A stretch of DNA of 64,000 nt, from positions 2,112,001-2,176,000 of the forward strand of contig CAXXKT010000001.1 in the NCBI GenBank assembly GCA_963662405.2, given 5' to 3'. The notes beneath the pieces were generated by a model. That model ran no database searches and had not been told where the DNA came from. It worked only from the letters and a program-made list of their open reading frames with translations. Positions 1 to 36,335 of the stretch are shown one piece after another. This DNA comes from Syntrophales bacterium (lineage in GTDB: Bacteria > Desulfobacterota > Syntrophia > Syntrophales > UBA2210). Within the stretch, counting starts at the first letter, position 1; every line of letters starts with the position of its first letter. The translations under genes and the position numbers were made by a program.

Positions 1-892
1 GCGGAGACGTCCCTGATCTGTTCCAGGGTCTCAGCGATCTCGTGGTCATCGATATGAGCCGGGCGCAGGAAGAATTTGATCATCTGGAAGTGGGCGTCGT
101 CGAGGACCGCCTGGAGGGGGCAGAAGACGGAATTGCAGTCGAGGAGCCCATAGGCACAGTGGAGATACTGGGGGCCACTCAACGTCACCAGGATGTTCGA
201 GAAAAGCCGTTCGATGGATGATTGCTGGCCGGGGACCTTCGGGTCGCAGACCCCCGAAGTGGAGTAGTTGGGAATTTTGTAGAAACGGGCAAGCTGGACG
301 CAGTCGATGTTGAACTGACTCGTTTCCACCGCTCCGTATGAATCCGCCAGGGAGTCCATCCGGGTCATGACGGGGACGCTCCCGTACATGATCGGTGTTC
401 CCCGCCTGACGAGCTGGCCGAGGGTGATCCCCGCGAGTACCTCCGCGTTGATCTGCGCGATGATCCCCGCTTCTTTAACGGGGGCCGTGGTCCCCGCCTG
501 CGGTGACGAGGAGACGACGACCGGCAGACCCTTCCGGCAGATCTCGATGAATGACTGCGTCGTGTCAGCGACGAACTGAAGGGGGCTTTTGACCAGACAG
601 GTGATAAAGGAGAGGAGGGGATTTTTCCTCAGTCGGCCGGGACCGCCCGCTATAATCGTTGCCATTCGGAGGACATTTTCGAGCTGACCGATGTTGGTCA
701 GTCCGATCATGACGTGCTTCGTCGTGTTGTCGAGGGAGGCGAAGACCTTGTTGACATCTTTGTTCTCCTCCGTGATGTCCGGGTCCTGTATATTGACGTT
801 TCTGATAAAGGCGTCGAGTGTCTCAAGGTGCTCGCAGAGGTGCGCCGCCCGGCAGAGATCCTCAATAGTCCCCCGGCGCGGCGTAAAGGAGG
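1..892 (-). pseudogene. MttB (trimethylamine methyltransferase) family protein, 3' part; interrupted by IS and truncated by window edge
   Basis: Manual minus-strand translation is open throughout: SFTPRRGTIEDLCRAAHLCEHLETLD...SPQAGTTAPVKEAG...YGAVETSQFN...ARFYKIPNYSTSGVCDPK; similar to the MttB at 3538-4983; not in ORF track. Confidence 0.88.
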
Positions 893-914: not shown

Positions 915-1095
915 CTGTGAATTGGGATACACTGTTTGAAACTTTATAGTTTTGGGCAGCAAGGCTACTGTTCGACATGTTTACTGGTCTTCGAGACCGC
1001 AAAGGAGAATGAAGAGCTGTAGCCGCAACATTCAATGATCTTCGAGATCGAATAGGAGATTGGGACCAATTCACCTGACAGGCGCTGTCCAAGAT
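915..1095 (+). ncRNA. Predicted bridge/seek RNA in the IS upstream non-coding region
   Basis: Stems 952-960/1084-1092 and 963-968/1019-1024; two repeated modules GGTCT-TCG-AGACC-GCAAAGGAG (986-1007) and GATCT-TCG-AGATC-GAATAGGAG (1037-1058) matching target and donor; RNA ends approximate. Confidence 0.75.
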
Positions 1096-2718: not shown

Positions 2719-3528
2719 TTATTCTTCCAACAGACCCTTACGGTAGGCCCGTGTGTATTTCCGGCAGAGGGAATCTCTGCCGGTCAGCATATCGGCCGCC
2801 CGCACCAGCCCCATCATCCGGGTGTCGAGGGGATTGAGGATGGCCGCATCGAGCCCGGCCGCGGCCGCCATGAGCATGAAGGAGCGGTTGACGATTCCCC
2901 GCCCCGGCAGACCGTAGGAGATGTTGCTGAGTCCCATAACGGTCTTGGCCTCGGGATAACGCTCCTTGAGGGCTTCGATCGTCTTCAGTGTGATGAGCCC
3001 CCGGGTGGTGTCGACGGAGATAGGGAGGACGAGGGGATCGAAATAGACCCGCTGTGGGGGGACTCCCGCCCCGCCGAGATGGTCCATGATGATGTCGGCC
3101 GCCTCGATCCGCTCCTCGACGTTCCGGGGAACCCCGGCACCCTTCATCACCAGGGCGATAATGCGAGCGCCTGCTTCGGCCACGATCTTCCCGATCGGGC
3201 CGAGGCGGTCCGCCTCGGCGGTGACCGAGTTGATCATCGCCTCTTCGCCGCGGTACGCGGTAAGGGCCGCCTCCAGGACGGCCGGATCGTCACTATCGAT
3301 ACAGAGGGGCTTGTCCGTTGCCTCCTGCACGACCTCCATGAGCCACCGCATGATCTCGACAGGGGTGCTCCCCGCGCCCCGGCCATCACCGGCGTTCACA
3401 TCGATATAATCAGCTCCGGCCGCCGCCTGATCGCAGGCAAGGGATACCAGTGATTCCCGGTCCTGTGCGGCAATGGCCTTTCCCGTCGACGGGATGGACG
3501 CGTTGATCTTCTCTCCGATTATCAGCAT
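2719..3528 (-). CDS. Pterin-binding methyltetrahydrofolate:corrinoid methyltransferase (AcsE/MtgA-like)
   Basis: MLIIGEKIN, YIDVNAG, PLCIDS, INSVT, YFDPLVLP, GLSNISYGLP, GLDAAILNP motifs. Confidence 0.92.
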   Translation of the reverse strand: MLIIGEKINASIPSTGKAIAAQDRESLVSLACDQAAAGADYIDVNAGDGRGAGSTPVEIMRWLMEVVQEATDKPLCIDSDDPAVLEAALTAYRGEEAMINSVTAEADRLGPIGKIVAEAGARIIALVMKGAGVPRNVEERIEAADIIMDHLGGAGVPPQRVYFDPLVLPISVDTTRGLITLKTIEALKERYPEAKTVMGLSNISYGLPGRGIVNRSFMLMAAAAGLDAAILNPLDTRMMGLVRAADMLTGRDSLCRKYTRAYRKGLLEE

Positions 3529-3537
3529 AGGGATCTC

Positions 3538-4983
3538 CTATATCTCCCGCAACCCCGGTATGGACGAAAGCATCCGCCGGTACACCTCATCGGGGATGAA
3601 GTTTTGGGGAGGCGCCCCCAGCACCTCCCGGACTTGCCCGGCCGCCCGGTCCCTGATTTCCCGGGAGCCGGCCTTTTCCCACGAAACGCGATCGTCCCGG
3701 TCACTCAAGCCGGGAACGAATTGTTGCGTGCGCATGTACTTGCGGGTATGGGCCTGGGCCAGGTAATGGCCGCCGGGGCCGACCTTCCTGATGGTGTCGA
3801 AGCCAAGGGTCTCGTCGCTGACCTCGATCCCCTCGACGGCGCGCATCACCATCCCGATGATCTCGTTGTCGATGACCAGCTTGTCATAGGAGGCGGTCAT
3901 GCAGAACTCGATGAATCCCGCCGCGTCGTGGATAAAATTCCCCCCCGCCAGGGCGACCATCAGATTGGTCAGGGCCGATTCGTACCCCGCCTGCGCATCG
4001 GGTATCTTCGCATCGGTCATCCCGGCTGTCGCGTAGTAGGGGAGTCTGTAGTATTGAGCCATCTGGGCCGCCGCCGCGTTGAGGAGGCCCATCTCGACGG
4101 CACCGCAGATGTATTTCATGCTGTGGAGATCGGCGATGGAGGCGACGCTGCCGTACAGGGTAGGGGTGCCCGGGTTGGCCATCTGGGCGAGCATGACCCC
4201 GGCCAGCGTGTCCACGTTCTGGATCACCAGTGTCCCGGCGAGGGTGACCGGCGCGGTTGTCCCCGACAGCGGCTCCGCGGGGACGACGACGGGAATTCCC
4301 TGCCGGGCGACCTCGATGGTCAGACCGGAATAGTGTTCGTCCAGCCTCAGGGGGCTGACGACGCAGGTGACCATGGAGATGATGGGGCGTTCCCGCAGTC
4401 GCTCCGGACCACCGGAAATCATCTCGGCTATCTGGATGACGTTGCGGATACCGTCGACCGTGTAGACGCCCCCCATGATGTGCTTGCGCGTATACCTCAA
4501 CGCGGCCCCGAACCGGTTGACATCCACCTCGCCGGCATCAAGTTCGTTGGGATAGACATTCAGCATATAGAAGTGGATATTTTCAAGCGATTCGACGAGA
4601 CGTGCCATCTGCACTATATCCGCCAGCGTAGCTCGCCGTGAATCGGTGGACCCGCTCTCCTGGACGTTCAGGGCCGTTCCCCCGGTCCCCATGTACACCC
4701 GCCGCCCCCCGATCTCGCAGTCGAGTTCGCCTTTATCCCCCCGTCCGCAGAGGGTCACTACCGGCGGCGCCTGGGCGATCAGTTCCTCAACCCGTTTCGC
4801 GGGGATCCGGACGATACCGTGTTCATCATCGATTGCGGCACCGGCCCGGCGGAAGAGCCCGCGCGCCTCGGGGAGGCGGGCCTCGATCCCCACCTCTTCA
4901 AATACCCGGAGAGTGGTCTCGTGGATTTTTTCGATATCTGGTTCCCCGAGAGGCCGGTAGGCCCCTCCTTCCGGTCCTTTCAT
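3538..4983 (-). CDS. Non-pyrrolysine MttB-family methyltransferase
   Basis: IHETTLRVFEEVG, GTTAPVTLAG, GAVEMGLLNAAAAQMAQYYRLP, DAQAGYE, VGPGGHYL; ATG 4983 overlaps the metF stop (ATGA). Confidence 0.92.
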   Translation of the reverse strand: MKGPEGGAYRPLGEPDIEKIHETTLRVFEEVGIEARLPEARGLFRRAGAAIDDEHGIVRIPAKRVEELIAQAPPVVTLCGRGDKGELDCEIGGRRVYMGTGGTALNVQESGSTDSRRATLADIVQMARLVESLENIHFYMLNVYPNELDAGEVDVNRFGAALRYTRKHIMGGVYTVDGIRNVIQIAEMISGGPERLRERPIISMVTCVVSPLRLDEHYSGLTIEVARQGIPVVVPAEPLSGTTAPVTLAGTLVIQNVDTLAGVMLAQMANPGTPTLYGSVASIADLHSMKYICGAVEMGLLNAAAAQMAQYYRLPYYATAGMTDAKIPDAQAGYESALTNLMVALAGGNFIHDAAGFIEFCMTASYDKLVIDNEIIGMVMRAVEGIEVSDETLGFDTIRKVGPGGHYLAQAHTRKYMRTQQFVPGLSDRDDRVSWEKAGSREIRDRAAGQVREVLGAPPQNFIPDEVYRRMLSSIPGLREI

Positions 4984-5861
4984 GCGTCGTATCCTCGTTC
5001 CAAAGGAAGGGCGCGGACGATCCGTTCCACATGACGGCACCGGTTCATACTGTAAAAGTGGATTCCCGGGACGCCGTTTCTGAGGAGATCCTCGCTCTGC
5101 GCGGTCGCGTATTCGATGCCGTACTGTTCAACGAGATCGTCTCTGTCCTCTGCGTCACGGATCTTCCGTTCCAGTGATACGGGGAGACGAGCCCCGCAGA
5201 GTGACGCGATCTTCTGTATCTGCCGGTAACTGAAGAAAGGGAATATTCCCGGAATAATCGGAATGTCGATCCCGGCCTTTGTCGCGTAATCCCGGAACCG
5301 GTAAAAATCCGCGTTGTTATAAAAAAGCTGTGTAATGACAAAATCAGCCCCGGCATCGATCTTTTTCTTGAGATGGTCGATGTCCGCCGCCAGAGAAGGT
5401 GCCTCGATGTGACCCTCGGGATACCCGGCTACCCCGATGCAGAAGTGGTTGTCCCGCTGGATAAAGGTGACCAACTCATGGGCGAAACCGAATCCACCTT
5501 CAGACTTGACATAGGAATCCTGCCCCGCCGGCGGATCTCCCCTGAGGGCCAGAATATTCTTGATGTTCGATCTTTTTAATTCATCGAGAACCGACGCGAT
5601 ATCATCCTTCGATGCCTCCACGCAGGTCAGGTGTGCCAGGACCTCAGCCGTGCCGGTTCCTTTCAGGGCCGAGGCTATCTCGACGGACATGTCATGGGTG
5701 CTGCCGCCGGCGCCGTACGTGACGGAAATAAAGTCGGGATTGAGCCGTGCCAGTCTGTCGATGACGGGGAAAAGGCGATCCGCCGTACCGTCCCTGACAG
5801 GTGGGAAGACCTCGAAGGAGAGAGAAAAGTCGTTGTTTTGTAGGATATCTTTAATCTTCAT
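4980..5861 (-). CDS. metF: 5,10-methylenetetrahydrofolate reductase
   Basis: SFEVFPP, SVTYGAGGS, AHLTC, ALRGDPP, AGYPEGH, GADFVITQLF. Confidence 0.95.
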   Translation of the reverse strand: MKIKDILQNNDFSLSFEVFPPVRDGTADRLFPVIDRLARLNPDFISVTYGAGGSTHDMSVEIASALKGTGTAEVLAHLTCVEASKDDIASVLDELKRSNIKNILALRGDPPAGQDSYVKSEGGFGFAHELVTFIQRDNHFCIGVAGYPEGHIEAPSLAADIDHLKKKIDAGADFVITQLFYNNADFYRFRDYATKAGIDIPIIPGIFPFFSYRQIQKIASLCGARLPVSLERKIRDAEDRDDLVEQYGIEYATAQSEDLLRNGVPGIHFYSMNRCRHVERIVRALPLERGYDA

Positions 5862-35978: not shown

Positions 35979-36230
35979 GAAGCCGGATCGGGAAAAGGCG
36001 GAGTATCATACCGGTGAACCCCGTGGTTCGGGGGGGTGGATGCTTTTCGGCTCCCGCCGGTATCCAGTTATCTGTATGAAATGTAAGTCACCTTTTTTAC
36101 TTGACACAGATTACACTTTTCAGTTACGGGAAAAAATGGGTTGTTCTGCGTCAACCCCTGTTCTTGCAATAAAAATCATCCGTAATCCTCACCATTGCTT
36201 GTTTGACCACGTAACGCAAAGGAGGAAGCC

Positions 36231-36335
36231 ATGGAAAAGATCTGTCTTACTGCTTTGTTTGTTGTCTTTTTGACCACACCCGTTTGCTGGGCGTCACCGT
36301 GGGTATCGTGGCGATCCGTCGAAGACGTTTTTTGA
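36231..36335 (+). pseudogene. Truncated secreted-protein 5' end (34 aa)
   Basis: Strong RBS AAAGGAGG; signal-peptide-like MEKICLTALFVVFLTTPVCWA, then early stop. Confidence 0.45.

Follow-up and report, generated by a model that had tools for sequence, protein, structure and literature searches.

An IS110-family element whose predicted bridge RNA appears programmed for translation-start signals

Some insertion sequences have been described to insert between a Shine-Dalgarno (SD) sequence and a start codon, for which Doran 1997 (IS900) and Inglis 2003 (IS901) are cited in the available portion of PMC2942039. Both IS900 and IS901 of Mycobacterium avium belong to the IS110 family, and the element described here lies likewise between SD and start codon. 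In PMC8141618, the motif of IS900 is given as CATGNNNNNNTCTCCTT, which is the reverse complement of AAGGAGA-N6-CATG, and only 3 genes are disrupted among 58 copies. An earlier note on this DNA knew of no description of SD targeting, but it was already published for IS900 and IS901 (PMC2942039, PMC8141618). Insertion at gene starts is already known from mycobacterial IS900, and what the present sequence appears to offer is a readable guide code behind that habit. By contrast to the element here, which possesses 10-bp subterminal repeats, IS900 is described as being without inverted repeats. Furthermore, IS900 uses the host ribosome-binding site (RBS) for its antisense hed ORF (PMC8141618, available text), which would imply the opposite orientation, whereas the transposase of the present element is co-oriented with the target gene. 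Within the accessible portions of the literature, we found no guide-level account of IS900 or IS901 and no bridge RNA linked to SD/ATG targeting, although the supplementary target tables of PMC11208160 and PMC11187229 may list such a target; the accessible portions of two preprints (10.64898/2026.10.21.760802 and 10.1101/2025.10.25.684509) likewise gave no guide-level account of SD/ATG targeting.

The window (the whole 64,000-nucleotide stretch of DNA that was analysed) contains an IS110-family element of 1,387 bp at 890-2276, delimited by copy boundaries and sequence, with the following features.

890-906, + strand: left end, a 7-nt extension AGGAATG and the subterminal inverted repeat ATAAAAAGTC (897-906), from copy boundaries and sequence
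963-1024, + strand: target-binding loop of the predicted bridge RNA, with outer stem 963-973/1014-1024 and inner hairpin 985-999, from fold and stem covariation
976-982, + strand: putative right target guide CATGTTT, pairing with top strand AAACATG, its CAT reading the start codon
1001-1007, + strand: putative left target guide AAAGGAG, pairing with the bottom strand
1029-1033, + strand: putative right donor guide CATTC, complementary to left-end GAATG
1036-1050, + strand: donor-loop inner hairpin, a covarying stem
1052-1058, + strand: putative left donor guide ATAGGAG, equal to the right-end sequence
1111-2223, + strand: IS110-family DEDD recombinase of 370 aa, PF01548 and PF02371, residues D8, E60, D98, D101 and S267
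2264-2276, + strand: right end, the inverted repeat GACTTTTTAT and AGG, with a −35-like TTGACT at 2262-2267

The recombinase scored 228.9 bits against NF033542 (cut-off 140) and possesses both a DEDD RuvC-like domain and a Transposase_20 domain with the catalytic serine, while its best named plasmid match was the ISLin1 family at about 30% identity. Nine copies were found by genome search, and because eight of them are identical (the ninth has one substitution), the element has probably moved recently. All nine share one orientation and an (A/T)AAGGAG target. The subterminal repeats (897-906 and 2264-2273) are perfect over 10 bp, and setting the ends at 890 and 2276 leaves extensions of 7 nt on the left and 3 nt on the right. 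We take AG as the 2-nt core because the retargeted homologue L144 has AG alone common to both junctions, and a single homologue, L014, suggests a crossover 5' of this AG. A target-site duplication of AGGAG(G) was considered and rejected, since the junctions of L144 have only AG in common and a related empty allele is shorter by exactly 1,387 bp. The right end also contains a hairpin, and a circle junction built in silico reads TTGACT-17-TAAAAA, which is promoter-like; no such joint was present among four contig sets, which cannot show absence. Among 40 other genomes of close relatives of the host, one alone gave matches to the element, and these were partial. The same genome holds other, distant IS110-family transposases (25-34% identity) at C1:158583-159515, 164067-164999, 305388-306320 and 1415815-1416747, with further ones at C1 129771 and 880626 and at C2:343311-344243 and 328452. 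In sequencing run X5, a loose end at window 2279 marks a further site occupied by a near-identical element; there, ATG comes 8 nt past the core.

Two groups of described elements are closest in architecture. With IS621 and ISCro4 of the IS110 group (PMC11208160, available text; PDB 8wt6, 9t56), the element shares an enzyme with DEDD and Tnp20 domains, an upstream RNA whose target loop precedes the donor loop, a 2-nt core and natural reprogramming. The recombinase can be aligned to both, with weak similarity (E 1e-18, mainly C-terminal). The long non-coding region that IS621-like elements carry upstream of the transposase is also present (221 nt on the 5' side versus 53 nt on the 3' side). By contrast, subterminal repeats are reported as absent or 2-3 bp in that group whereas a 10-bp perfect repeat is found here, and IS621 is described to target REP elements whereas this element targets an RBS. 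Guide order is also reversed relative to that reported for IS621: the top-strand (right) guide comes first here, 976-982 being 5' of 1001-1007, and the donor loop has the same order. In addition, unlike the IS621 guide as described, the right guide appears to exclude the core and to begin past a gap. With the IS1111 group (ISEc11, ISPa11, ISKpn4), as far as the accessible text of PMC11187229 describes it, the element shares extensions of 7 nt on the left and 3 nt on the right beyond the subterminal repeats, a top-strand match 5' of the bottom-strand match and the GL-P----S motif; its promoter-like in-silico junction may correspond to the junction promoter of that group. The 10-bp repeat falls within the reported IS1111 range of 7-17 but below the usual 11-13. 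Differences from this group are SN in place of its SG, an RBS as the target, and a non-coding region upstream instead of downstream of the transposase, for which the same source reports a few IS1111 exceptions such as ISMtsp17. The element thus seems to join ends and a guide order of IS1111 type to an upstream RNA of IS110 type, and because at least one defining feature differs for the IS621-like group and for the IS1111 group, we assign it to the broad IS110 family alone.

The upstream RNA is predicted to consist of two like-shaped modules, each with a 5' guide, 2 nt, a hairpin closed by U-G, 1 nt and a 3' guide. Although the stability of the single-strand fold is moderate (z −1.95), three helices covary in 16 homologues, which are kin and not independent, with 97.5% of cells paired, 27 double-sided changes and none of 500 shuffles equal. 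No Rfam match to 860-1140 was obtained at E up to 1. In the donor loop, 64 of 71 distinct guide/end records, covering five sequence variants, show an exact match of the right guide to the left end, and the left guide equalled the right end in all 73 records (AGGAG/AGGAG in 71, AGAAG/AGAAG in 2).

The earlier note had quoted the left target CGTAAAGGAG at 882-891, guide strands CGCAAAGGAG at 998-1007 and CATGTTTAC at 976-984, and an RBS CGCAAAGGAGGAAGCCATG at 36215-36233, all of which are found at these positions. The 3' strand that it drew as left guide is right for 1001-1007, which match the target, but too long at 10 nt: the guide measures 7 nt, since 998-999 form part of the hairpin stem and no covariation is seen at 1000. 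With 59 SD-type guides (L035 and L151 dropped), the left guide covaried with the target at position −6 (0.95 versus 0.80) and at −7 (0.77 versus 0.33); a 10-nt guide with a CGC extension was rejected with −8 giving no covariation (0.20 versus 0.24). Of its 5' strand, 976-982 pair with the right target whereas 983-984 are unpaired with it; contiguous pairing of 983-984 with the two post-core bases was rejected at 0.24 and 0.28 against a null of 0.29 and 0.31 (31 guides). The four inner bases of the right guide covaried once the comparison was anchored on ATG (53 guides, p=0.0003; L050, L151 and L155 dropped), peaking two bases before ATG with the first position being not significant, and their matches were modest (0.41-0.59). 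Sequence comparison thus gives a pairing geometry of 7+7 nt around the AG core with an unpaired gap of 1-3 nt, usually 2, in which CAT is the most strictly read part of the guide and the four U-rich inner bases match loosely. As a separate observation, in the upstream region of L067 and at a loose end at window 1001 in run X4, host DNA joins straight at the stretch encoding the left target guide, which suggests that guide-coding DNA may itself act as a recombination site.

Since the guide spells a ribosome-binding site plus a start codon, copies would be expected to land directly 5' of host genes. In this genome the left flank is AAAGGAG in 8/9 copies and TAAGGAG in 1/9. ATG occurs 5-9 nt past AGGAG in 8/9 copies with a broad range of spacers (5, 5, 6, 6, 7, 7, 8 and 9), and the remaining copy, on C2, has ACG at 6. 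Seven copies precede host ORFs, their ATGs opening 71-239 codons with Pfam matches in 5/7. The genome-wide background was ATG at 221/916 AAAGGAG sites (24%; binomial p=8e-5 for the copies), and at least 6/7 guide matches occurred in 4/8 of the element's own sites versus 25/916. An alternative is that only the SD guide is read. ATG would then follow since most AAGGAG sites serve as RBSs and insertions that break genes are lost to selection, and CAT would be structural or left over from duplication of the donor loop. Outside long ORFs, 174/403 (43%) of (A/T)AAGGAG sites already have ATG, a background that 7/8 non-window copies exceed at p=0.014 only, leaving room for selection in a single genome, and the donor loop likewise has CAT at the equivalent position.

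Homologues provided a larger sample, composed of 77 loci from genomes and the best 80 of 260 metagenome loci, with record titles naming Spirochaetota, Desulfobacterota, Chloroflexota and Lentisphaeria bins; the relatedness of these loci means that pooled p-values overstate. Among 107 unique right flanks with a parsed target loop, own copies included, ATG was found at 5-9 nt in 86 of 93 CAT-guide sites versus 2 of 14 with other guides, and of these two, L155 has a CAT guide that is one base longer. The seven CAT-guide misses comprise ATG at 4 (one), a duplicated right end (one), GAG runs before ATG (two), ATG at 10 and 12 (two) and the C2 copy. The 94 CAT-type sites comprise 65 that open ORFs of at least 60 codons, 17 that leave the contig, 9 that are short and 3 without ATG. 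None of the 93 sites relies on GTG or TTG alone, such starts making up 5-17% of a crude RBS-like background. The spacer was 6 nt at 48 of 89 sites, and this peak, sharper than that of host RBSs, speaks against reading of the SD alone. In genome G041, with 800 kb of its 5.15 Mb sampled as background, ATG was present at 15/15 copies versus 28/114 TAGGAG sites, and the 6-nt spacer at 12/15 copies versus 34/128 RBS-like AGGAG sites (Fisher 8e-5) or 7/19 TAGGAG sites (0.017). The spacer of the element is narrower than that of host RBSs in G041. With own copies, G041 and CAT-guide sites in agreement, the targeting of translation-initiation regions supposed in the earlier note is supported. A distant Lentisphaeria group (G042) also has SD-ATG at 10/10 copies with spacers of 5-9, and a fixed CAT was not evident in its differently folded RNA, so that SD reading plus selection may suffice there. 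The elements of this group (L069-L086, L184-L193) show 31-37% identity, a longer RNA and an 8-nt left extension.

Irregular right junctions were also seen. One to four extra GAG triplets follow the right-end AGGAG in L035, L103, L129, L161 (a non-SD target) and the C1:387739 copy of the present genome, possibly from out-of-register recombination at AG-G-AG. In L151 a second left end comes 8 nt after the element, representing either tandem copies or a circularised contig, and in L050 a tandem duplication covers the final 29 nt of the right end, with an ATG following at 6 nt.

A group of relatives has both target guides replaced, with CAT and ATG lost together. L168, for example, carries guides CGTTCCC / AGGGGAG at the site AGGGGAG-TA-GGGAAAG, and L154 carries GCTTGTG / CACAAAG at CACAAAG-AT-CACAAAG. 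Nine retargeted guides fitted their own 12 flanks at 4.75/7 with a gap of 1-3 nt (which equals an ATG spacer of 5-7) versus 2.8 for SD flanks (p=1e-4), and exceeded within-group shuffles (p=0.008); this mean excludes the poor fit of L061 (2/7, or 4/7 after a GAG). When 99 transposases were placed in a FastTree with the Lentisphaeria group as root, the retargeted elements fell within the SD-type clade, apparently as one group of ten plus L161 and L061, and they amount to about two to three lineages of evidence. Given that retargeted guides match new flanks, CAT is a guide position open to reprogramming and is not required for structure. Guide-target covariation, one of the checks proposed in the earlier note, was found: the 5' strand covaries with the right flank, and retargeted guides fit their own flanks. 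Together with the covarying inner bases of the right guide, the replacement of CAT makes reading of the SD alone unlikely for the SD-type elements. That target choice is driven by protein or host, for example by open DNA at gene starts, with incidental loop matches, we consider very improbable: short A/G-rich matches are common, but each of four guide segments covaries with its DNA segment on the strand expected, and IS110-family targeting is described as RNA-guided in the available text of PMC11208160 and PMC11187229. Separately, an L144-L168 subset inserts into CAC(A/G)-rich, partly palindromic repeats.

The copy in the window landed at a site with the following features.

3-889, − strand: 3' part of mttB (trimethylamine methyltransferase family), PF06253 model 133-417, continuing beyond the window
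885-891, + strand: left target AAAGGAG (SD-like), identical to the guide at 1001-1007, with the AG core at 890-891
2277-2691, − strand: 5' part of mttB, PF06253 model 29-122
2279-2287, + strand: right target GGAACTATG, with ATG 6 nt past the core and 5/7 guide matches at gap 2
36218-36233, + strand: unoccupied guide-like RBS AAAGGAG-GA-AGCC-ATG, with no element copy there

The insertion splits the minus-strand mttB frame, both halves of which match PF06253, and the ATG at 6 opens a frame of 11 codons only. This copy therefore appears to have landed on an antisense mimic of an RBS and to have broken mttB, in agreement with the earlier note. As the sole clearly intragenic antisense insertion, it has ATG at 6 where 17% (131/788; n=1) would be expected, which also argues against the SD being the only part read. 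A run X4 contig carries the corresponding empty site in an mttB allele about 90% identical, from a relative of a different strain: the allele is in frame with exactly 1,387 bp missing, joins 890 to 2286 through 8 other letters and contains neither the AGGAG nor the ATG of the mimic. Directly upstream of the disrupted mttB (2719-5040, minus strand), the window encodes a pterin-binding methyltransferase and a second, still intact mttB paralogue, which may buffer the loss. The RBS at 36215-36233 fits the joined guide at 16/19 by hand count, as the earlier note had said.

Combining guide covariation with retargeting, we consider it highly probable that the element is an active IS110-family bridge recombinase with an RNA programmed for translation-start signals. 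As sequence comparison shows, the target loop reads the 7-nt left site AAAGGAG, an SD ending in the AG core, then, past a gap, a 7-nt right site ending in ATG, and the donor loop reads the joined ends ATAGGAG|GAATG. On the IS621/ISEc11 model, the element would be excised to a circle whose junction promoter (TTGACT-17-TAAAAA) may drive RNA and transposase, and the DEDD/serine recombinase would perform RNA-DNA pairing. Recombination at AG would then seat the element between SD and start codon, co-oriented with the gene and without duplication. The left junction would retain the host SD, and because the right end brings TAGG ahead of the core AG (2277-2278), the gene would receive TAGGAG at the original distance. 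The SD-ATG site would be abundant and mostly non-coding, and its use, which would leave the gene translatable, would keep the programme conserved. The rebuilt SD foreseen in the earlier note is indeed read as TAGGAG at the right junction; the translation-preserving landing it proposed stands at the sequence level, while the 1.4-kb insert may be polar on transcription.

It is a serious, though minority, possibility that the targeting is real and not benign, genes being cut off from their promoters and silenced or re-tuned, with the rebuilt SD as a by-product of donor/target similarity. Such an outcome is compatible with RNA-programmed targeting of translation starts because it concerns the consequence. 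Promoter and gene come to lie 1.4 kb apart, the right end contains a hairpin, and for 4/7 gene-start copies the upstream ORF on the same strand is over 200 nt away. The right-end −35 gives no hybrid promoter ahead of ATG either: the scan match at 2262-2289 was rejected since its −10 would overlap the start codon and be useless to the downstream gene. Against this, a terminator scan gave no call for the right end, and the complete SD is retained by all SD-type donor guides (67/67) and missing from retargeted ones only (2/10), though AG alone need be shared. Despite the small numbers, this hints that the rebuilt RBS is under selection. Right-end remnants, moreover, persist as apparent RBSs of orthologous genes in several genomes.

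In these remnants, the last 20-30 nt of the right end alone form the apparent RBS of host genes (L259 and L294; L264, L295 and L296; L244, L258, L288 and L291), some being common to several genomes at orthologous genes. A 17-nt right-end pattern was found in 36 of 401 genomes of the phylum of G041 (4 hits for the reversed control), and 64 new unique flanks of this pattern had ATG at 5-9 nt in 49 cases, most without a transposase within reach. Many of these loci are repeats of 130-170 bp, often tandem, and 23 of 27 parsed begin past AGGAG or GGGAG. Seven of eight such loci tested matched Rfam TD-1, two of them above the gathering score. Repeats matching TD-1 or TD-2 (RF03155, RF03162; PMC1950547) between SD and ATG were seen at L250:1389-1516, L265:1492-1616, L277, L284, L292, L300 and L273 (genomes G208, G292, G356, G312, G407, G371 and G242). 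The TD-1-matching repeats share the terminal TTGACTTTTTATAGGAG with the element and, like it, begin past an SD-like (A/G)GGAG, usually 5' of ATG; unlike it, they are only about 130-170 bp long, without transposase or guide. In the available text of PMC1950547, TD-1 lies 5' of diverse genes as a possible cis-regulatory RNA of unclear function, and no paper linking TD-1 to MITEs was found in our literature search. An autonomous partner was absent from the five genomes searched, three of which had other IS110 domains (best 28.5% identity), and six relatives of one TD-1 locus had a partial, a different or no repeat without a clean empty site. From shared ends and position, the TD-1 repeats of spirochaetes may be MITEs, possibly non-autonomous derivatives of this kind of element.

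A wider reading, which we offer tentatively as a little short of an even prospect, is that the element belongs to a cross-phylum lineage between the IS110 and IS1111 groups, in which a split right guide with an elastic gap of 1-3 nt reads the start codon, the right end serves as a portable RBS kept by hosts after decay, and TD-1/TD-2 of spirochaetes are non-autonomous derivatives, not riboregulators. If TD-1 indeed came from the lineage of this element, a catalogued RNA motif would be reassigned and a mobile-DNA route for rewriting ribosome-binding sites revealed, while the loss of the donor SD in retargeted relatives suggests selection on the rebuilt RBS. A guide that tolerates a gap would represent a way of pairing new among bridge recombinases and offer a natural tool to insert DNA at gene starts, and the RNA described here would provide a readable code for the old IS900-type observation of insertion at translation starts.
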